From: a virus
Length of the DNA: 44,730 nucleotides
IMG/VR virus record: IMGVR_UViG_3300021518_000002
Strand: one strand, 5' to 3'
Under the pieces are notes generated by a model. It did not search any database. It was given only the letters and a program-made list of their open reading frames with translations, and had not been told where the DNA came from. Position numbers and translations under genes: made by a program. This document shows, piece after piece, positions 5,735 through 44,730 of this stretch (its first letter is position 1; the number at the start of each line of letters is the position of its first letter).

Positions 5735-7451
5735 CTTTGAGGTTTTTAAAGAAAATTGGATGGTTGTCATTATTGACATGATGAAGAAAAAAGAACATGT
5801 CATCATTAATGATCCTGATGAACTGGAAAGAGTTCATAAAGAAAATGTGAATGAAATATGGGTTGGTTTTAATTCCAGGCATTATGACCAATATATTTTC
5901 AAAGGTATTCTTTGTGGATTTGACCCTAAAAAAATAAATGATTACATCATTGTTAAAGGTAATCCAGGATGGAAATTTTCTTCATTACTTCGGAATGTGA
6001 AACTAATAAACTATGATGTTATGACCAACATTGATAGAGGATTAAAAACCTTTGAAGGGTTCATGGGGAATGACATAAGGGAATCAAGTGTTCCTTTCGA
6101 TATTGATAGAAAATTAACTGAAAAAGAGATTGAAGAAACGGTCAAATATTGTAGACATGATGTGCAACAAACAGTTGAAGTGTTCCTGGAACGGAAAGAT
6201 GACTTTGAAGCACACATGGGTTTAGTGAAAATTGCATGTGAAGGAAAACCATTGGACTTATTTCTTTTATCTAAAACGAAAGTTCAACTATCATCCATCA
6301 TACTAGATGCAAATAAAGTGGATCGTAACGATGAATTTAATATTGATTTTCCTTCCACAATGAAAATTGAAAAATATAAAGAAGTGGTTGACTGGTATGC
6401 CAACCCTGAAAACAGAAAATACAATATCAATCCTGATGATAAAAAGTCAAAGAAGAATCAACTGGATATTATGGTTGCAGGTGTTCCGCATGTCTTTGGA
6501 TGGGGCGGTGTTCATGGAGCAATAGACAAATATCATGGTGAAGGTTATTACCTGAACATGGATGTTGCTTCCCTATATCCATCACTGATGATTCAGTATG
6601 ATCTTGGTAGTAGAAATATGAAAGACCAAAAGAAATATGAAGAAATTTATCATCAACGATTGAAATATAAAGTAGAAAAGAACCCTTTAGATTTACCATT
6701 GAAACTTGTTCTGAATGGTACATATGGGGCAATGAAGGACAAAAACAATCAGTTGTTTGACCCAAGACAAGCAAATAGGGTTTGTGTATATGGTCAATTA
6801 TTATTGCTTGATTTAGTCGAAAAGCTTGAACCACATTGTCAGATTATCCAATCCAATACGGATGGTGTACTGATAAAAATGAACCGTTATGAAGATTATG
6901 ATTTGATTGATGATATTGCTTATGAGTGGGAACAAAGAACAGGCCTTGTTCTTGAATTTGAAGAATTCAGAAGGGTTTTCCAAAAGGATGTAAACAATTA
7001 TATTGTCATTGATGCAGACGGAAAATACAAATCCAAGGGTGGATATGTAAAGAAACTAAACAACTTGGATTATGACCTTCCAATTCTAAATAAGGCACTA
7101 ATCAATTATATGGTTCATGATATTCCAGTTGAACAAACGGTAAATCAATGCAATGAATTGAAAGAATTCCAACTGGTTTCAAAGATAAGCGGAAAATATA
7201 CAACCATTCTTCATGGTGATCAAGAAGTATTTGAAAAATGCATTAGAATATTTGCTTCAAAATTGGAATCTGATAAAGGTGTTGTAAAAGTTCATGCTAC
7301 AACGGGTAGACCTGCAAAAATACCTAATTCCCCTGAAAATTGCTTCATTTACAATGATGAAGTGAATGGGGTTAAAGTACCAAAGAAGTTGGATAAACAA
7401 TGGTACATTAATTTTGCATTGAAAAGATTGACTGATTTCGGTGTGGTGTAA
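5721..7451 (+). CDS. Compact family-B DNA polymerase with 3'-5' exonuclease domain
   Basis: Exo motifs: YDFEVF (DxE), NSRHYDQYIF, YCRHD. Polymerase motifs: DVASLYPSLM (DxxSLYPS), KLVLNGTYG (KxxxNxxYG), SNTDGV (xxDTDx-like). Start moved to the ATG at 5721 (MLFYDFE) behind AGGATGGTGA. Confidence 0.8.
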   Translation: MLFYDFEVFKENWMVVIIDMMKKKEHVIINDPDELERVHKENVNEIWVGFNSRHYDQYIFKGILCGFDPKKINDYIIVKGNPGWKFSSLLRNVKLINYDVMTNIDRGLKTFEGFMGNDIRESSVPFDIDRKLTEKEIEETVKYCRHDVQQTVEVFLERKDDFEAHMGLVKIACEGKPLDLFLLSKTKVQLSSIILDANKVDRNDEFNIDFPSTMKIEKYKEVVDWYANPENRKYNINPDDKKSKKNQLDIMVAGVPHVFGWGGVHGAIDKYHGEGYYLNMDVASLYPSLMIQYDLGSRNMKDQKKYEEIYHQRLKYKVEKNPLDLPLKLVLNGTYGAMKDKNNQLFDPRQANRVCVYGQLLLLDLVEKLEPHCQIIQSNTDGVLIKMNRYEDYDLIDDIAYEWEQRTGLVLEFEEFRRVFQKDVNNYIVIDADGKYKSKGGYVKKLNNLDYDLPILNKALINYMVHDIPVEQTVNQCNELKEFQLVSKISGKYTTILHGDQEVFEKCIRIFASKLESDKGVVKVHATTGRPAKIPNSPENCFIYNDEVNGVKVPKKLDKQWYINFALKRLTDFGVV

Positions 7452-9389: not shown

Positions 9390-10148
9390 TTGTTGAAATT
9401 ATTAAGTCTATTCAGTGGAATAGGTGCATTTGAAAAGGCACTGAATAACTTGAAAGTAAAATATGACTTAGTAAATTATTGTGAGTTTGACAAGTATGCT
9501 TCCAAGGCATATTCACTAATTCATAATGTACCTGAATCAAAGAACCTTGGTGACATTACCAAAGTAGATGAAACATCCCTTCCTAAAGGTATTGATTTAA
9601 TAACATATGGTTTCCCATGTCAAGATATATCTTTAGCAGGTCATCAAAAAGGTTTATTTAATGAAGATGGTACGAAAACAAGAAGTGGTTTATTCTTTGA
9701 TGCATTAAGAATTATCACACACACACACACACAACCAAAGATTGCTATTGCGGAGAATGTGAAGAATCTTACCAGTAAGAGATTTGAAAAACAATTCAAT
9801 ATAGTTTTAGATTCATTAGATCAGGCGGGTTATAACAATTATTATCAAATTCTGAATGCCAAAGATTATGGAATCCCGCAAAACAGGGAAAGGGTTTTTA
9901 TCATATCCATTAGGAAAGATATTGATAATAATATGTTTGAATTCCCTACACCTTTTGAACTTAAAAAGACCTTGAAAGATATGTTGGAAGATGAAGTTGA
10001 TGAAAGCTATTTCTTATCAGATGAAAAAATTAACAAGATAAGGTATAGCAACTTCAATCAAGAGAAAACACTCATTCAAGGGGGAGGGGTTTGTCAAACA
10101 TTGTTAGCAAGAGATTATAAAGACCCCAAATGTGTTGAGGTACTGTAA
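9390..10148 (+). CDS. DNA (cytosine-5)-methyltransferase, N-terminal ORF (motifs I-VIII plus part of the target-recognition region)
   Basis: Motifs: LFSGIGAF (motif I), GFPCQDIS (motif IV), ENVKNL (motif VI), QNRERVFII (motif VIII). The ORF ends in the variable region. Confidence 0.85.
   Translation: MLKLLSLFSGIGAFEKALNNLKVKYDLVNYCEFDKYASKAYSLIHNVPESKNLGDITKVDETSLPKGIDLITYGFPCQDISLAGHQKGLFNEDGTKTRSGLFFDALRIITHTHTQPKIAIAENVKNLTSKRFEKQFNIVLDSLDQAGYNNYYQILNAKDYGIPQNRERVFIISIRKDIDNNMFEFPTPFELKKTLKDMLEDEVDESYFLSDEKINKIRYSNFNQEKTLIQGGGVCQTLLARDYKDPKCVEVL
9716..9733 (+). repeat. (CA)9 dinucleotide tract inside the methyltransferase ORF
   Basis: CACACACACACACACACA encodes THTHTQ in the loop between motifs IV and VI. 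Confidence 0.95.
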
Positions 10149-10636
10149 TGAATAAAGACAAGAGAATAATACAGGAAGCGAACTTAAATCATTATGGAAA
10201 TGACCAAATGAACCGTGTATATGGAGTTGAGGGTATATCACCAACAATTAAAACGGTAACCGGGGGAGGACGTGAGGTGAAAATATTAATTAGAGAAGCA
10301 ACCAAGCAAGGTTATGCGATAGCTGAAACGGGTGATTCTATCAATCTTGAACATCCAAATTCAAATACTAGAAGGGGTAGGGTTGGAAAATCTGTTGCGC
10401 AAACTGTCACTACTTCCCCACAACAGGCGGTTATATTGAAAAATAGAGTTAGAAAAATGACACCAAAAGAGTATTTAAGATTAATGGGATTTTCAGATTC
10501 AGATATTGATATTTTGAATGAAAATGGTATTTCTAAAACACAACTTTATAAACAAGCAGGAAATTCAATAGTAGTTGATGTACTGGAAGAAATATTTTGT
10601 CAGATTTTCGATCAAGATAATGAAATTTGGGTGTGA
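10148..10636 (+). CDS. DNA (cytosine-5)-methyltransferase, C-terminal ORF (target-recognition region plus motifs IX-X)
   Basis: The ATG overlaps the upstream TAA (TAATG). Motifs: GISPTIKTVTGGG, TPKEYLRLMGF (motif IX), AGNSIVV (motif X). This frame is closed upstream by the TGA at 10136. Confidence 0.8.
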   Translation: MNKDKRIIQEANLNHYGNDQMNRVYGVEGISPTIKTVTGGGREVKILIREATKQGYAIAETGDSINLEHPNSNTRRGRVGKSVAQTVTTSPQQAVILKNRVRKMTPKEYLRLMGFSDSDIDILNENGISKTQLYKQAGNSIVVDVLEEIFCQIFDQDNEIWV

Positions 10637-10649
10637 AGGGGTGAAATCA

Positions 10650-10928
10650 TTGCAAGATAAAATACAAAAACATCAAGAAATTTGCAAAATACTTAATGAT
10701 GTTTATGAAAGGAAAAATCATGATTACGGTGATTCCTTTGCAAAGTTAAGAAATGAAATTCCTAATGCAATCCTGGTTAGGGTGTATGACAAATATAGCA
10801 GGCTGAAAACCTTACTTGATGGTAAGGAACAGCTTGTTATGGAAGAAAGTATTGATGATACCCTAATGGATTTAGCAAATTACTGTATTATGGAATTAGT
10901 CGAAAGGAAGATTACAAATGGAAATTAA
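10650..10928 (+). CDS. DUF1599-like (nucleotide-modification-associated domain 1) protein
   Basis: KNHDYGDSF ... DKYSRLKTL ... DTLMDLANYCIM. The start was chosen as the TTG at 10650 behind GAAGGGGTGA; the exact start is uncertain. Confidence 0.55.
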   Translation: MQDKIQKHQEICKILNDVYERKNHDYGDSFAKLRNEIPNAILVRVYDKYSRLKTLLDGKEQLVMEESIDDTLMDLANYCIMELVERKITNGN

Positions 10929-11256
10929 TGAATACCAGGCTTTAGCATTAAGAACATCTAATAGTGAAATGTCAGAGGATTTAATACTTAATGGAATCCT
11001 TGGGTTATGTGGTGAAACTGGTGAAGTATCTGATCATGTTAAGAAATCATTATTCCAAGGTCATGAATTCGATAAAGAACAGGTCATTAATGAACTCGGT
11101 GATGTTTGTTGGTATGTTGCAATATTAGCGAAAGGTCTAGATGTTGACCTGGAAACAGTTATGCAGAAAAACATAGATAAATTAAAGGAAAGATACCCTG
11201 ATGGTTTCGCTGCTGATAAATCTATAAACCGAAAGGGTGACTTAAATAATGACTGA
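10918..11256 (+). CDS. MazG-like nucleoside triphosphate pyrophosphohydrolase
   Basis: YQALALRT..., GLCGETGEV, ELGDVCWYVA and KNIDKLKERYP are the characteristic MazG helices. Confidence 0.8.
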   Translation: MEINEYQALALRTSNSEMSEDLILNGILGLCGETGEVSDHVKKSLFQGHEFDKEQVINELGDVCWYVAILAKGLDVDLETVMQKNIDKLKERYPDGFAADKSINRKGDLNND

Positions 11257-32464: not shown

Positions 32465-34534
32465 ATGGCTGAATTTAAACAGTTAATTATTACAGATAGA
32501 GGTCAAGCATTGATGGCGAAAATGCTTGCAGGTACAGGAAATGTTCTATTCACAAAGATCAGTGTTTCAGATACAACCTATACTGATGGACAACTTCCTG
32601 GTCTAACTTCATTATCAGGTGTCAAGCAAACTACATTAATCAGTAGAGTTATTAGAACAAATGATGTAGCTGTTCAAGTTGAAGGGGCGGTTACTAATAC
32701 TGATTTATCTACTGGTTACTATATGAGGGCAATCGGACTTTATGCCATTGACCCTGACCTTGGTGAAATTCTTTATGCGGTAACTATTGCAAGTCAAGCC
32801 GGATATATGCCACCTTATAATGGAATTACAACATCAGGTGCTTTCTTTAAGCTTGTCACAACTGTTTCAAATGCTTCAAGTGTTTCACTAAATGTTGACC
32901 CTGCTGCTGTTGCAACTATTGGTGATATTGCAGATTTACAGAATAAAATTTCAGACCTTCAAGCATTTGTTGGATATACAGACAGTGACATTGTTGGTGT
33001 GGAAGTAGATTTTAAAAATAAGAAGTTTACTAGATTAGCAGGTGCAGTAAATAGAATACCAGGTTCAGGGTTCGACAACATCAATGCATTCGGTGGAAGA
33101 AAAAGATGTATTTTAGCTGATGATGGTAAGGTTCTAGCGTATTATGGTGAAGCTGCATATACGGAAACTGGTGCTTTATTACAAGCAGTTACAAAGGGCG
33201 GTACTACTTATGCAGTTGGAACAAAAGTTCAAGTCATGGTTGAACAACCAAAATTCTATTACAAGGTAGTTCCATTACAACTTGATAAGGTTGAATATAA
33301 AGAAATCAATACGCTTGCAATTACAGCAGTTCCAACATCAGATGGAAATGTGACTATCAACCTTGATGGTAAAGATTTCACAGTTGCAGTTGCTACAAGT
33401 GATAACACAACATCTTTAGTAGCAACAAAAATCAGAGCAGCATCATTTACAGGATGGACAACTGGTGGATCAGGTTCATCAGTAACATTTACAGCTATTG
33501 ATTCAGGTGAAAAAGTAACTGCTACATTTAACGGTGGAACAACTGGTGTTACTGCAACAGTGACTAAAACTGTTTCGGGTAAAGTCGGTAAAGGATTCCA
33601 CATGAGAAAAGCAAGATATTATATTTCTGATGTGAAGAAGGTAGGATTTAAACTTCACCCTGCTTTTATTAGTAACGGTAAAGAAAAGAATTTCATTTAC
33701 CCATCAGCATTTGAAGGATCAGTCTTTGATAAATCAGCAGGTGTATATTTGTTAGCTGATGAACAGATAGTTGATTTTACTGCTTCAACTGGTGACTTAC
33801 TATCATCCATTGCAAATGCAAAACCAACATCAGGTGTGACACAAACAGGTGCAACAAGAAGTGGATTCAGAAAATTAGCAAACAATCGTGGTACAGGTTG
33901 GCAGCAGGCATATGCTGCAATAGTTGCTGCAACACAGTTATTGTTTACAATCGAATATGCTTCCATGAACACACAGTCCAAGATTGGAAACGGTGTTCAA
34001 AAGACTGATGATGCTACATCTAATATGGCTGAACTTACTGGTGCAACCACAAACCTTGGAAATTCATCAGGTGCAGTAACAAATACAAATGGATTTAATG
34101 TTGTCACTTATCGTGGGGAAGAAAACTTTTGGATGAACATTTGGAAGTTTGTTGATGGTCAGAATATTGAAGCTAAAAACATGAATAATCTTTATGTTGC
34201 TGATAATGCATTTGCCGATGACATAGGAACATCACCATATAAAGATGCAGGAATTACATTGTCAAGAAAAGATGGCTATATTTCAGCATTCGGTTACAAT
34301 GAAGAATTTGACTGGTTGTTCTTCCCTTCTGAAACAACAGGTGATAGTTCACTTCCAGTTGGTGATTACTTCTATCAGAATCACACATACAATGGATGGT
34401 TGATCGCTCGATTGGGCGGTAGTTGGACTTATTCTTCTTATGGTGGTGGTTTCTGTTGGAGTGTGACTTATGCTTCTTCTAGTCGTGGTCGGGATGTCGG
34501 CGGTCGCTTGGTGTATGTACCTGATGCAGCATAA
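32465..34534 (+). CDS. Tail fibre / receptor-binding protein, DGR target (variable C-terminus)
   Basis: The N-terminus MAEFKQLIITDRGQAL...LYAIDP is a phage tail-collar fibre domain. The C-terminal 41 codons form the VR (see the 34396-34517 repeat) and are Gly/Ser/Tyr/Trp-rich, as in C-type-lectin-fold DGR targets. Confidence 0.85.
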   Translation: MAEFKQLIITDRGQALMAKMLAGTGNVLFTKISVSDTTYTDGQLPGLTSLSGVKQTTLISRVIRTNDVAVQVEGAVTNTDLSTGYYMRAIGLYAIDPDLGEILYAVTIASQAGYMPPYNGITTSGAFFKLVTTVSNASSVSLNVDPAAVATIGDIADLQNKISDLQAFVGYTDSDIVGVEVDFKNKKFTRLAGAVNRIPGSGFDNINAFGGRKRCILADDGKVLAYYGEAAYTETGALLQAVTKGGTTYAVGTKVQVMVEQPKFYYKVVPLQLDKVEYKEINTLAITAVPTSDGNVTINLDGKDFTVAVATSDNTTSLVATKIRAASFTGWTTGGSGSSVTFTAIDSGEKVTATFNGGTTGVTATVTKTVSGKVGKGFHMRKARYYISDVKKVGFKLHPAFISNGKEKNFIYPSAFEGSVFDKSAGVYLLADEQIVDFTASTGDLLSSIANAKPTSGVTQTGATRSGFRKLANNRGTGWQQAYAAIVAATQLLFTIEYASMNTQSKIGNGVQKTDDATSNMAELTGATTNLGNSSGAVTNTNGFNVVTYRGEENFWMNIWKFVDGQNIEAKNMNNLYVADNAFADDIGTSPYKDAGITLSRKDGYISAFGYNEEFDWLFFPSETTGDSSLPVGDYFYQNHTYNGWLIARLGGSWTYSSYGGGFCWSVTYASSSRGRDVGGRLVYVPDAA
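34396..34517 (+). repeat. DGR variable repeat (VR)
   Basis: Gap-free 122-nt alignment to 34624-34745. All 28 differences fall at adenines of the downstream copy. Confidence 0.9.
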
Positions 34535-34623
34535 GACTGACATAGAATAAAAATATTGAAATAAATTTGGGCAATCAGGGTGTTGATACAACCAAGAAGT
34601 CAGACACAAAAGAAAAAGCCATT

Positions 34624-34745
34624 ATAGTTAATCACTCAATTAGGCAGTAATTGGAATAATTCTTCTAATAGTGGTAGTTTCTATTGGAATGTGAATAATA
34701 CTTCTTCTAATCGTAATCGGAATATCAGCAGTCACTTAGTAAATG
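34624..34745 (+). repeat. DGR template repeat (TR), non-coding
   Basis: 41 adenines and 11 AAT codons when read in the VR frame, with an in-frame TAG at 34625-34627. It lies 143 nt upstream of the RT gene. Confidence 0.9.
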
Positions 34746-34888
34746 CATAAAATTAATCTTAAAAATGTGAAACCTGATTGCCCTACCTCTTGGTAAAACA
34801 TAAAAAGAATTGAACTGTATTGGTAGACTTTGAACTTTCAAAGGTTGAAGATTCGGTTTGATAATGTGCATACAAAGGATAGTCATAA

Positions 34889-35956
34889 ATGAAAAGACAT
34901 GGGTATTTATACGAAAAAATTTATGATATGGACAACCTAATCCTTGCACACCAAAATGCTAAAAAGGGAAAAGGATGGTACAAAGAAGTTCAGATGGTTG
35001 ATGCAAACCCCGAATATTATTTTAGTTTGCTTCAAGAAATGCTGATTAATAAAACGTACCAAACTTCAAACTATGAAACATTCATCAAGAATGATAGCGG
35101 AAAAGAAAGAGAAATTTTTAAATTACCCTATTTCCCCGACAGAATATGTCAGTGGGCAATATTACAAATAATTGAACCGCTACTATTAAACAATTTCACC
35201 AAGGATACTTATTCAGCAATTCCAGGAAGGGGAATTCATCTTTGTTTCAATAGATTATGTGATGAAGTTCAGAATGATGTTCCAGGGTCACAGTATTGTT
35301 TAAAAATTGATGCAAAGAAGTTTTATCCATCTATCAACCACACAATCTTAAAAGAAAAATATAGAAGATTGTTCAAAGATTCTGACCTTCTTTGGTTACT
35401 GGATGAAATCATTGATTCTACACCTGGTGACACTGGAATTCCTATTGGAAATTATCTGTCACAATACAGTGGTAACTTTTATTTTTCAGAGTTTGACCAC
35501 TGGATAAAAGAAGTCAAACGTGTAAAGCATTATTTCAGATACATGGATGACATAGTAATCCTTGGAAACAACAAAGAAGCACTTCATCAACTTAGAAAAG
35601 AAATAGATGAATATTTCAAAACAAAATTGAAGTTAAAAATCAAAGAAAGTTGGCAAGTGTTCCCTACATTTGTGCGTGGAATTGATTATGTTGGATACAG
35701 GATATTTCTGAATTTTAAACTTCTTAGAAAATCCACTTGTAAGCAATTCAAGAAGAAAATGATTGCAATTAATAAAAAGCGGATAGAAGGAAAAGAACTA
35801 AATTATTCAGAATGGTGTTCAATCAATTCCTATAAGGGATGGTTGATTCATTGTGATAGTTATAGATTAATAGAAAAATATATTGAACCAATTCAACAAT
35901 TTGCAGATGATTATTATTTGCAAAACATTTATATGAAGGGTGGAATACCTGCATGA
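34889..35956 (+). CDS. DGR-type reverse transcriptase
   Basis: Motifs: PDRICQWAI, AIPGRGIHL, LKIDAKKFYPSINH, IPIGNYLSQ (DGR-typical (I/L)GxxxSQ), RYMDDIVILG (YxDD), GIDYVGYRI. Confidence 0.9.
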   Translation: MKRHGYLYEKIYDMDNLILAHQNAKKGKGWYKEVQMVDANPEYYFSLLQEMLINKTYQTSNYETFIKNDSGKEREIFKLPYFPDRICQWAILQIIEPLLLNNFTKDTYSAIPGRGIHLCFNRLCDEVQNDVPGSQYCLKIDAKKFYPSINHTILKEKYRRLFKDSDLLWLLDEIIDSTPGDTGIPIGNYLSQYSGNFYFSEFDHWIKEVKRVKHYFRYMDDIVILGNNKEALHQLRKEIDEYFKTKLKLKIKESWQVFPTFVRGIDYVGYRIFLNFKLLRKSTCKQFKKKMIAINKKRIEGKELNYSEWCSINSYKGWLIHCDSYRLIEKYIEPIQQFADDYYLQNIYMKGGIPA

Positions 35957-36207
35957 AAGATTATGGAAAAGTAAGAAGCACTGTTCAACCTGAACCATTA
36001 GTGATTGATGAATTTAACGTTTGGGTTTATTCCAACATTACACAAGTTGAAGAAAATGATGGGGATAACACTTTCACTGGCTTTGAATATGACATGGTTC
36101 AGTACGAAAAAGATGAATACATCAGGATCATGGCTGAACGAAACAGTAATACGGAAAGTACGCTTGATTCATTGTTAACAGAAATTCTTCCAAGTCTAAT
36201 GGTTTAA
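35953..36207 (+). CDS. Hypothetical acidic protein (tail-fibre-associated, XkdW-like position)
   Basis: ATGA overlap with the RT stop. 84 aa and acidic. Confidence 0.55.
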   Translation: MKDYGKVRSTVQPEPLVIDEFNVWVYSNITQVEENDGDNTFTGFEYDMVQYEKDEYIRIMAERNSNTESTLDSLLTEILPSLMV

Positions 36208-44287: not shown

Positions 44288-44730
44288 ATGGAAGTTGTTA
44301 AAGGATTTAAGGTTTTTAACCCTGATTGGACATGCAGAGGGTTTCAATATGAAGTAGGTAAAACATTTGAAGAAAATATCAGTCCTAGCGTTTGTGATAG
44401 AGGTTTCCATTTCTGTAAATTACCAAATGATTGCTTCAATTATTATTCATTTGACCCTAATAACAAGGTTGCAGAAGTTGTTGCCCTTGGTGAAGTTTCA
44501 GAAGAAGGGGATAAATGCAGCACCAATAAAATTCAAATTGTTAGGGAAGTTCCTTGGTCTGAATTACTAGATTTAGTCAATATAGGAAAAGGAAATTCCG
44601 GTCATTCCAACAGTGGTAATCGCAACAGTGGTGATTGGAACAGTGGTCATTCCAACAGTGGTGATTGGAACAGTGGTGATTGGAACAGTGGTCATTCCAA
44701 CAGTGGTGATTGGAACAGTGGTGATTCCAA
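44288..44730 (+). CDS. 5' part of the wrap-around gene: conserved N-terminal domain plus start of the N-S-G-x-x repeat array (continues at 1..520)
   Basis: ATG at 44288 behind AAAGGTAGGGG. Translation MEVVKGFKVFNPDWTCRGFQYEVGKTFEE...CDRGFHFC..., then NSGHSNSGNRNSGDW... No stop occurs before the window end, which explains its absence from the ORF track. Confidence 0.8.
   Translation, partial: MEVVKGFKVFNPDWTCRGFQYEVGKTFEENISPSVCDRGFHFCKLPNDCFNYYSFDPNNKVAEVVALGEVSEEGDKCSTNKIQIVREVPWSELLDLVNIGKGNSGHSNSGNRNSGDWNSGHSNSGDWNSGDWNSGHSNSGDWNSGDS
44594..44730 (+). repeat. Tandem 15-nt coding repeats (first half of the array)
   Basis: Nine 15-nt units run from 44594. The last 30 nt of the window are identical to its first 30 nt. 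Confidence 0.9.

Follow-up and report, generated by a model that had tools for sequence, protein, structure and literature searches.

Evidence for a minimal Avd-less diversity-generating retroelement at the tail-fibre tip of a temperate Bacillota phage, with two apparent classes of template adenine

Why should the last part of a phage tail-fibre gene recur just beyond the gene as a non-coding copy that differs from it at adenines only, close to a reverse transcriptase (RT)? The question is raised by a viral record of 44,730 nucleotides (IMG/VR IMGVR_UViG_3300021518_000002; this whole stretch is called the window below), for which an initial annotation had proposed a diversity-generating retroelement (DGR) that rewrites the fibre tip. 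That interpretation is upheld. We are highly confident that the locus is a minimal DGR without Avd, made up of a target gene with its variable repeat (VR), a template repeat (TR), an RT-17 RNA and the RT, and that it diversifies the tip of the tail fibre, because adenine-only mismatches, a DGR-type RT, a conserved RNA, a lectin fold and relatives whose VRs differ at TR adenines all point to it (Table 1). The window encodes sheath, tube, a serine integrase and an S24 repressor; it represents a temperate phage with a contractile tail, whose host is a low-G+C member of the Bacillota, in line with the temperate myophage first described.

Table 1. Features of the locus (window coordinates).
Feature	Position	Strand	Remarks
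Target gene, 689-aa tail-fibre protein	32465..34534	+	N-terminal tail-collar fibre domain; C-terminal C-type-lectin-fold domain with VR
Fibre C-terminal 289 aa	33665..34534	+	modelled (AlphaFold2) C-type-lectin-fold receptor-binding domain
Variable repeat (VR)	34396..34517	+	inside fibre gene; 122 nt homologous to TR, with 28 mismatches confined to TR adenines
Hypervariable VR core	34421..34496	+	10 AAT-templated codons + TAT>TGT + ATC>GTC; fibre residues ~653-678
IMH-like VR 3' end	34497..34517	+	TCGGCGGTCGCTTGGTGTATG; G+C-rich at start, invariant across family
Template repeat (TR)	34624..34745	+	non-coding; in-frame TAG, TAA shortly 3'; 41 adenines, 11 AAT codons
IMH*-like TR 3' end	34725..34745	+	TCAGCAGTCACTTAGTAAATG
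Structured RNA RT-17 (Rfam RF03020)	34779..34875	+	between TR and RT
DGR reverse transcriptase, 355 aa	34889..35956	+	IGNYLSQ (motif 4), YMDD; RVT_1

Repeat pair, reverse transcriptase and structured RNA

VR and TR align without gaps, with a start-to-start offset of 228, and are the top family in a repeat search of the window, both strands of which hold no further VR-like copy. The mismatches comprise 22 A>G, 4 A>T and 2 A>C; 13 TR adenines are kept unchanged in the VR, and the repeats agree at every C, G and T of the TR. The probability that 28 of 28 mismatches would land on the 41 adenines by chance is about 6e-18 (hypergeometric). The earlier hand count is reproduced exactly, and realignment yielded none of the non-adenine mismatches that had been named as a refuting case; a recount likewise agrees on the 11 AAT codons of the TR, read in the VR frame, and on its in-frame TAG at 34625-34627. 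G+C content is 50% in the VR versus 30% in the TR, and the stop codon of the fibre gene lies 17 nt beyond the VR end. The 3' ends of the two repeats differ solely at TR adenines (5 A>G, 1 A>T) and, by their sequence, fit the operational definition of IMH and IMH* given by Wu et al. 2018 (PMC5758913).

The RT starts 143 nt beyond the TR, its motifs and position being verified as initially described. It matches Pfam RVT_1 (3e-20) and PHROG phrog_1423 (1.6e-122), and its best match in the PDB is the BPP-1 enzyme bRT (8ub7; E 7e-32, 114 bits), as against at most 64 bits for group II and retron RTs. When it is aligned with 8ub7, the IGxxxSQ motifs coincide and the residues corresponding to bRT R74 and I181 are retained. 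The named records among the matches listed by tblastn against phage genomes are all known DGR carriers. Sequence comparison supports grouping this RT with DGR RTs, the Bordetella phage enzyme being its best match, which is the RT type that the initial annotation expected rather than a retron or group II type. At the amino-acid level it is 81-82% identical to the RTs of three relatives (L001, L002 and L008), 57.6% to that of Psychrobacillus phage Perkons, the closest deposited RT, and 40-48% to those of crAss-like phages (40% for Carjivirus crAssphage). The RT of crAssphage LMMB (AlphacrAssvirinae genus I) has been put in Lineage 3 (PMC7290462). Our neighbour-joining tree, in which the crAss-like sequence cr6_1 was mis-framed, did not resolve the RT (expected grouping in 0 of 100 bootstrap replicates), so its placement in Wu's Lineage 3 is made on similarity alone.

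The match to RT-17 scores 76.1 bits (gathering score 40.4; E 2.4e-13) and is the only result of the Rfam search of the window, which returned neither a group II intron RNA nor a retron ncRNA. This RNA lies directly 3' of the TR in 15 of 15 related loci, and compensatory changes occur at 8 of the 11 predicted pairs of its helices (17 sequences). In BPP-1, the interval between TR and brt holds RF03022 (Phage_DGR) in Rfam, and Weinberg et al. 2017 described the RT-10 motif at this position (PMC5737381). By analogy, RT-17 is presumed to be the counterpart of the BPP-1 spacer RNA, which recruits the RT and primes cDNA synthesis. Among the loci of the most similar RTs, RT-17 exceeds the Rfam threshold in this family and in cr6_1 only; the Perkons DGR locus has no Rfam RT motif at threshold. 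A DGR link was speculated by Weinberg et al. for RT motifs generally (PMC5737381), and Rfam's orphan RT-17 motif is now tied to a large family of DGR cassettes.

The cassette spans about 1.4 kb between the fibre gene and the next phage gene, in the order target-VR, TR, RT-17 RNA, RT. This is Architecture A1 of Wu et al. 2018, target-TR-RT without accessory genes, and such Avd-less cassettes are a recognised arrangement (PMC5758913; crAss LMMB, PMC7290462). Neither the VR-TR gap (106 nt) nor the TR-RT gap contains an ORF on the + strand, and scans of 37 ORFs by Pfam, NCBIfam or PHROGs, which took in some of the ORFs under 90 aa elsewhere in the window, revealed neither Avd nor another accessory gene. 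We rejected an 84-aa ORF overlapping the RT stop codon as an accessory gene, since in relatives that have no DGR a homologue of this ORF comes immediately after the fibre gene. A G+C-rich inverted repeat after the IMH was also rejected: the DNA of 34490-34600 folds no better than shuffled sequences do (z -0.3), i.e., no hairpin or cruciform is predicted after the VR. Such a hairpin is present in just 34% of DGRs (Wu et al. 2018, PMC5758913). The promoter signal for a TR transcript does not exceed that of shuffled sequences, and no site resembling a terminator was found.

The BPP-1 paradigm first invoked for this locus stands as regards an adenine-specific DGR, but not as regards Avd and the hairpin after the VR. 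Since no accessory gene was found, the BPP-1 mechanism is not transferable in detail. In outline, and by homology to BPP-1, a transcript spanning the TR and the RT-17 RNA would be bound by the RT, cDNA would be copied from the TR with misincorporation opposite adenines, and the mutagenised cDNA would replace the VR in the fibre gene. The altered VR would change the ligand-binding face of the lectin-fold tip and, with it, receptor specificity.

The fibre tip and its diversification among relatives

The target gene comes after Baseplate_J and Mu gp48-like genes (Pfam). Its product contains a Phage_tail_fib domain (Pfam, residues 6-149) and belongs to phrog_5302, annotated as "tail protein" (8.8e-150, PHROG). 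The AlphaFold2 model of the C-terminal region has a pLDDT of 84.7 and a pTM of 0.87; a Foldseek search against the PDB placed TaqVP first (5vf4; E 4.5e-7, prob 1.00), followed by Mtd (1yu0-4), TvpA (2y3c) and FGE. The VR is thus modelled as lying on the C-type-lectin fold typical of DGR variable proteins, in agreement with the C-type-lectin/FGE-like fold anticipated for this region.

There are 254 relatives in IMG/VR, and this DGR type is widespread in Bacillota prophages; among GenBank phages, no close relative was found at the DNA level. The VR-TR architecture is shared by most of the fetched relatives with enough downstream sequence (dozens), and all four bases are present at the hypervariable-core columns across 43 distinct family members. 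To describe VR variation we divided TR adenines by their 3' neighbour, A[W] being followed by A or T and A[S] by G or C. The TR of the window differs from that of L001 and that of L008 at 1 nt each, yet the VRs differ at 14-23 positions. Differences from the L008 VR occur at 14 of 30 A[W], 0 of 11 A[S] and 0 of 81 non-adenine positions, and the comparison with L001 agrees with this. Six near-identical pairs with identical TRs and flanks at least 91.5% identical show the same pattern (94 of 176 A[W], 0 of 63 A[S], 0 of 471 non-adenine positions). These comparisons suggest that VR diversification is ongoing in the family and confined to TR-adenine positions, the activity of the present copy being inferred from its relatives. 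It had been expected that variation would be restricted to TR adenines, which is what we found, and, implicitly, that all 41 were mutable, which these comparisons do not bear out.

The fibre gene is directly followed by an orf84 homologue in L020-L023 and L104, where the DGR has been lost, and L027, L031 and L034 retain RT fragments only. Such relatives, together with the lack of a promoter that stands out 5' of the TR, would suit a cassette that was formerly active and no longer homes in this phage, its VR/TR differences recording past events. We regard this as improbable. The RT is full length with intact catalytic motifs, and the TR and the RT-17 RNA are intact, with top scores among family members. 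Non-adenine mismatches between TR and VR, expected to build up after inactivation, number zero, and close relatives combine nearly the same TR with different VRs. We give practically no credence to a decayed duplication of the 3' end of the gene that happens to sit beside a retron, group II intron or defence-type RT. The RT does produce partial NCBIfam matches to group II (96.9 bits, cut-off 300), Drt3a, Drt2 and retron models, but all are far below threshold, and a DGR RT is the best structural-database match. The confinement of the mismatches to adenines, an Rfam result of RT-17 in place of group II or retron RNA, and an architecture kept in dozens of relatives also speak against an origin other than a DGR.

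Two behaviours of template adenines

The 11 A[S] of the TR are all G in the VR of the window and nearly always G family-wide. The 30 A[W], mainly in 10 AAT codons, appear in the same VR as 13 A, 11 G, 4 T and 2 C. In the natural VRs here, A[S] is read as G in about 94% of cases and A is hardly ever retained; in the end regions, differences between the repeats are almost exclusively TR-A against VR-G. These sequence patterns suggest that TR adenines form two classes, A[W] being randomised and A[S] appearing as near-constant G. With A[S] read out as a constant G, about 12-14 codons vary, mainly the 10 AAT codons, rather than the two dozen (~24) of the initial annotation, and the 41 adenines come down to 30 mutable ones. 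By arithmetic (15^10 x 4 x 4), the repertoire would be on the order of 1e13 protein variants.

Alternatively, all 41 adenines may be equally subject to random A-to-N change, the constant G at 11 of them being due to purifying selection and to non-mutated boundaries at the VR ends. The three internal A[S] sites of the window (34670, 34676 and 34700) are all non-synonymous (AGT>GGT, AGT>GGT and ACT>GCT), as selection on the protein would allow, and for Bacteroides DGRs and BPP-1 there is a report of boundary regions that stay unmutated although the TR has adenines there (bioRxiv 10.1101/2024.11.15.621889). Synonymous sites behave alike, however: across the family, four-fold sites before G or C have G in the VR in 55 of 56 cases, and TTA becomes TTG in 51 of 58. 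At internal synonymous A[S] sites the count is 24 of 25, although mostly from two alignment columns. Of the few internal third positions at which a change of A[W] is synonymous, 12 of 15 likewise carry G, which equal mutagenesis would accommodate. Independent phages with other target genes have G at 14 of 16 synonymous A[S]. Under equal mutagenesis, functional products would be very rare, as each homing event would need G by chance at about 11 sites, and the TR-A/VR-G bias at the ends is not what drift would yield in a segment that is not transferred. We therefore consider equal mutagenesis of all 41 adenines rather unlikely.

It is a tentative but quite possible reading that the RTs most similar to this one copy A[S] almost always as G while A[W] is randomised. 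The TR would then be an "A-recoded" template: the IMH* (TCAGCAGTCAC) would be copied into a cDNA that matches the IMH (TCGGCGGTCGC) and not the TR, allowing donor and recipient to be discriminated without Avd or a hairpin. The RT group in question is mostly Avd-less and comprises this Bacillota prophage family, Perkons, several crAss-like phages, an archaeal virus and Yersinia phage fEV-1. The A-to-G class is found again in crAss-like phages, Perkons and fEV-1, whose RTs are the most similar and whose targets are unrelated, and an RT-intrinsic property is our leading guess as to its cause. We found no description of a near-deterministic A-to-G class in the literature.

Several simpler accounts of this class were tried and fall short. 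Avd-lessness is not its correlate, because Arawn and Epona, which have no annotated avd, keep A at such sites. The neighbour-joining RT tree did not delimit a clade carrying the class (0 of 100 bootstrap replicates), and what we claim is a correlation with RT similarity, not monophyly. The 3'-neighbour rule is not a full account: adenines in AAC are G in just 9 of 17 cases and, given also the synonymous A[W] count, the rule is approximate. If the A/G differences at the 3' end of the VR are put down simply to an IMH* segment that is not transferred, the internal sites and the near-exclusivity of TR-A against VR-G are left unexplained, although a boundary effect may contribute to those differences.

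If the A-to-G class is a property of the RT group, TR-adenine counts would overestimate the diversity of Lineage-3-like DGRs, the abundant crAss-like ones included, as 41 against 30 illustrates here. It would also hint at how Avd-less DGRs distinguish TR from VR, and would provide a design rule for engineered DGR mutagenesis, in which "silent" adenines emerge as G. The DGR type itself is already catalogued and abundant, and this locus illustrates it clearly without being out of the ordinary; apart from the RT-17 link and the two-class adenines, it adds mainly annotation.

Comparison with known systems

The DGRs of crAss-like phages (e.g., crAssphage LMMB; A1, Lineage 3 and CLec3 of Wu) likewise consist of target-VR, TR and RT, separated by short intervals, and lack an accessory gene. 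Their TRs are A-rich, as here, and adenines before G or C are G in the VR. Their carriers are podophages of Bacteroidota, whereas ours is a temperate contractile-tail phage of Bacillota with a different fibre target (phrog_5302). In Perkons the target ORF is also followed by a TR, 85 nt beyond the VR, and then by the RT, and at 11 of 13 positions where a non-AA adenine precedes G or C the VR has G; it is, however, a 137-kb phage, and its target is just ~30% identical, in the C-terminal part.

As in BPP-1 (mtd-avd-TR-brt), adenine-specific differences fall in the part of a receptor-binding tail protein that forms its C-terminal C-type-lectin tip. Also shared are an RT with IGxxxSQ and YMDD, a structured RNA between TR and RT, and a G+C-rich, IMH-like VR 3' end. 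The locus differs from BPP-1 in having neither Avd nor a hairpin after the VR, and its RNA is RT-17 instead of Phage_DGR. The variable codons are AAC in BPP-1 and AAT here, and the adenine before C, fully variable within the AAC of BPP-1, is a constant G in this family. The context fidelity of bRT is described as follows: a 3' G lowers the error rate and biases errors to A>G, while a 3' C favours A>C (10.1101/2025.03.24.644984; PMC12875486). In both systems, the base incorporated depends chiefly on what follows the template adenine on its 3' side; unlike with bRT, G appears here at A[S] whether the 3' base is G or C.

The repeat pair, its target and its relatives

The variable repeat (VR) that ends the tail-fibre gene aligns without gaps over 122 nt with the downstream template repeat (TR), exactly as the initial annotation had described. 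All 28 mismatches fall on TR adenines (22 A>G, 4 A>T and 2 A>C), 13 further adenines are the same in the VR, and all C, G and T positions are identical; the probability that 28 random mismatches would all land on the 41 adenines is about 6e-18. The pair was the top family in a repeat search of the window, and no third VR-like copy was found there on either strand. Read in the VR frame, the TR begins TAG TTA ATC ACT and holds 11 AAT codons.

The reverse transcriptase (RT) had been claimed to be of the kind found in diversity-generating retroelements (DGRs), and structure comparison bears this out: its closest solved structure is bRT, the RT of Bordetella phage BPP-1 (8ub7, 328 aa; E 7e-32, 114 bits), versus at most 64 bits for group II and retron RT structures. 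The IPIGNYLSQ segment pairs with IPIGSLTSQ of bRT, the equivalents of bRT R74 and I181 are kept, and NCBIfam group II, Drt and retron models matched far under their cut-offs. A tblastn search of 50,697 phage records matched 100; the named records among the matches listed are known DGR phages, including crAss-like phages, Hankyphage, BPP-1, VHML, Faecalibacterium phages and LBR48, and the nearest RT among those listed is that of Psychrobacillus phage Perkons (57.6%).

The target is a 689-aa tail-fibre protein (PHROG match phrog_5302) with a tail-collar fibre domain at its N-terminus, encoded downstream of Baseplate_J and Mu gp48-like genes. Its last 289 aa, modelled with AlphaFold2 from a 52-sequence alignment (pLDDT 84.7, pTM 0.87), have DGR variable proteins as their first structural matches: TaqVP (5vf4, E 4.5e-7), followed by Mtd (the variable protein of BPP-1), TvpA and FGE. 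As modelled, the C-terminal domain is a C-type-lectin fold, which is what had been expected of it.

Fibre relatives numbered 254 in IMG/VR, with 79 loci fetched, and 49 loci came from Bacillota genomes, their hosts including Acetobacterium, Oscillibacter, Lachnospiraceae, Faecalibacterium, [Clostridium] asparagiforme and Chryseomicrobium. A direct-repeat finder written here, treating TR adenines as wildcards, recovered the VR-then-TR order in most relatives with sufficient downstream sequence. Six near-identical pairs have identical TRs and 600-nt upstream flanks at least 91.5% identical (100% in one pair). Their VRs differ at 94/176 adenines followed by A or T (A[W]), at 0/63 followed by G or C (A[S]) and at 0/471 non-A positions. 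The test initially proposed, of VR variation in relatives against TR adenines, thus came out as predicted, the variation being confined to adenines. The TRs of two relatives, L008 and L001, each differ from that of the window by 1 nt; VR differences number 14/30 at A[W], 0/11 at A[S] and 0/81 at non-A positions against L008, and 21/30, 2/11 and 0/81 against L001. Such adenine-confined differences indicate that the fibre family is diversifying now or was very recently; activity of the window's own copy we infer. With adenine-only mismatches, a DGR-type RT, a lectin fold and the VRs of relatives, the initial reading was correct: the DGR at the tail-fibre tip is real.

A distant family member from a Spirochaetaceae MAG (L121) has two VRs for one TR: the first precedes the main segment that tblastn matched to the fibre, and the second is located where the match ends. 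Two archaeal viruses, vir215 (Caudoviricetes sp., Methanomassiliicoccales host) and vir525 (L134, Methanosarcinales), carry the same cassette type. The vir215 target is annotated phrog_5302, the family of the C-terminal part of the window's fibre, with a phrog_1423 RT following it, which suggests cassette exchange between bacterial and archaeal viruses.

The window (33.7% G+C) also encodes tail sheath, tube, tape measure, portal and small terminase, as well as a serine integrase, an S24 repressor and a holin/amidase cassette; the sheath, tube, integrase and repressor genes indicate a temperate contractile-tail phage. Both contig ends lie within one tandem array of 15-nt period, which in one frame reads as SGDWN/SGHSN/SGNRN-like pentapeptide repeats, and 30 nt are repeated exactly at the two termini. 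Probably the genome is complete, either circular or permuted, and its assembly was interrupted within the array. A run of small ORFs in the replication region suggests a nucleotide-modification module.

Cassette layout and spacer RNAs

Neither the 106-nt VR-TR gap nor the 143-nt TR-RT gap holds a + strand ORF. No significant hairpin was found after the VR, no promoter or terminator signal rose above background, and no Avd-type match (the accessory variability determinant of BPP-1-type DGRs) was found among 37 ORFs scanned. The acidic ORF after the RT was ruled out as a DGR accessory, its homologue standing directly after the fibre in DGR-less relatives (L020-L023, L104, L109, L110, L118 and L122). 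Because it follows the fibre whether or not a DGR is present, it is a gene of the phage, and the TR-RNA-RT segment is an insertion of ~1.4 kb. Short RT fragments alone remain in three further loci, and the cassette thus behaves like an insertion that is gained or lost. A small ORF overlapping or closely following the RT 3' end is also annotated in other DGR phages, including BPP-1 (bbp4), VP585 (gp21), Epona, vir525 and cr10_1.

RT-17 lay directly 3' of the TR in 15/15 related loci tested, with compensatory changes at 8/11 predicted pairs. It is one of the RT-associated motifs RT-1 to RT-19; RT-10 sits between TR and brt in BPP-1, and other RT motifs were speculated to serve other DGRs (Weinberg et al. 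2017, PMC5737381). With different Rfam families in other phages, several of them orphan RT-n motifs (see table), the spacer RNA seems to differ from one DGR group to the next. In many relatives a G+C-rich hairpin, e.g. GCACCCTTGAAACACAGGGTGC, is inserted between TR and RT-17; it is absent from the window.

The layout is the same as the already catalogued Architecture A, TR-RT without accessory genes (Wu et al. 2018, PMC5758913). RT Lineage 3 lacks avd (PMC5758913), and the crAssphage LMMB DGR is of Lineage 3 with CLec3-class VRs (PMC7290462). Because branching in our RT tree was unresolved, we call the window RT similar to Lineage 3 and not a member of it. The element is one more example of an Avd-less type that is abundant and has been classified before, and is itself of modest interest.

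Coordinates of features in the window and in related or independent loci
Feature	Location	Strand	Remarks
VR	34396-34517		G+C 50%
Core variable codons	34421-34496		10 AAT + TAT + ATC
TR	34624-34745		G+C 30%
A[S] adenines of TR	34626, 34634, 34642, 34646, 34670, 34676, 34700, 34727, 34730, 34734, 34738
RT-17 RNA (RF03020)	34779-34875		between TR and RT; Rfam 76.1 bits, gathering score 40.4
RT ORF	34889-35956		355 aa; Pfam RVT_1 match
84-aa acidic ORF	35953-36207	+	overlaps RT stop codon (ATGA); phrog_18126, function unassigned
Small ORFs	10148-11256	+	C-5 cytosine methylase C-terminal fragment (162 aa); DUF1599 ('nucleotide modification associated domain 1'); MazG pyrophosphohydrolase
Terminal array	1-167, 44600-44730
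RT fragments	L027 2776-2904; L031 4176-4316; L034 5264-5389		fibre relatives
Two VRs, one TR	L121 5140-5244, 6946-7006; TR 7312-7416
vir215 cassette	L136 3895-7029
Phage_DGR (RF03022)	L146 5855-5987		BPP-1; TR-to-RT spacer; Rfam
RT-3	L145 5809-5958		Hankyphage; TR-to-RT spacer; Rfam
RT-4	L148 5858-5974		Epona; TR-to-RT spacer; Rfam
RT-14	L138 5834-5977		BalMu-1; TR-to-RT spacer; Rfam
RT-18	L135 702-777		LBR48; directly upstream of RT; Rfam; no TR/VR pair found in stretch fetched
G+C-rich hairpin	L009, L012, L019, L060, L078, L081, L087, L092, L096, L106		~10-70 nt after TR end

Two classes of template adenines

In the family, 43 distinct TR/VR pairs show the AAT-codon adenines to be truly hypervariable and a second set to be G in essentially every VR. 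The VR base at A[W] adenines (n=1087) is A in 41%, G in 30%, T in 17% and C in 12%; at A[S] adenines (n=402) it is G in 378 (94%), A in 19 and T or C in 5. In the window, the 30 A[W] adenines read as 13 A, 11 G, 4 T and 2 C, and all 11 A[S] adenines as G. Half of the 22 A>G changes are therefore constant and not sampled, and this constant class accounts for the excess of G and for the higher G+C content of the VR. The initial figure of about two dozen variable codons was accordingly an overestimate: there are ~12 core codons, and two further 5' codons are variable in the family. By our own arithmetic (15^10 x 4 x 4), the repertoire is ~1e13 variants.

The trait extends beyond this family. Of 20 independent phage DGRs retrieved, 19 yielded a TR/VR pair; the class was scored there as adenines before G or C whose 5' neighbour is not A. 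In seven phages among those with the most similar RTs (36-58% amino acid identity) it is mostly G in the VR despite unrelated targets and hosts: Perkons (11/13), cr6_1 (7/8), cr55_1 (8/10), cr10_1 (9/10), CrAssphage C0526BW15 (8/8), Methanosarcinales virus vir525 (7/8) and Yersinia phage fEV-1 (8/10), or 58/67 in total. In the other DGRs tested (vir215, BalMu-1, Arawn, VP585, ACA1, phiWae15, Lagaffe, Hankyphage, BPP-1, VHML and Epona) there are few such adenines, and most are still A in the VR; the vir215 RT is 37% identical to that of the window. Absence of avd was rejected as a simple correlate, since no avd is annotated in Arawn or Epona and neither shows the trait.

An intrinsic, context-dependent reading of A as G by the RT is our leading explanation, held tentatively and at a little under even confidence. 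Alternatively, selection together with boundary effects may produce the class. Protein-level selection is not the whole explanation, since synonymous sites behave alike: four-fold degenerate third positions before G or C are G in 55/56, TTA>TTG is seen in 51/58, and synonymous third positions of this class in the seven phages are G in 14/16. Boundary adenines without mutation are already known (10.1101/2024.11.15.621889), and a boundary effect may explain part of the end regions; however, it accounts neither for the almost exclusive TR-A versus VR-G form of the differences in those regions nor for the internal synonymous A[S] sites with hypervariable positions on both sides, which are G in 24/25, although two alignment columns supply most of these. 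A further alternative to intrinsic misreading by the RT is that integration is the biased step.

What deserves experimental attention is this class of template adenines constantly turned into G. No description of it was found in the DGR literature searched, and the crAss paper counts every adenine difference as A-to-N (PMC7290462). In bRT, incorporation is governed by the base on the 3' side: before G, errors are less frequent and skewed to A>G, and before C, A>C is favoured (10.1101/2025.03.24.644984; PMC12875486). Compared with this context bias, the constant-G pattern described here is stronger and partly different.
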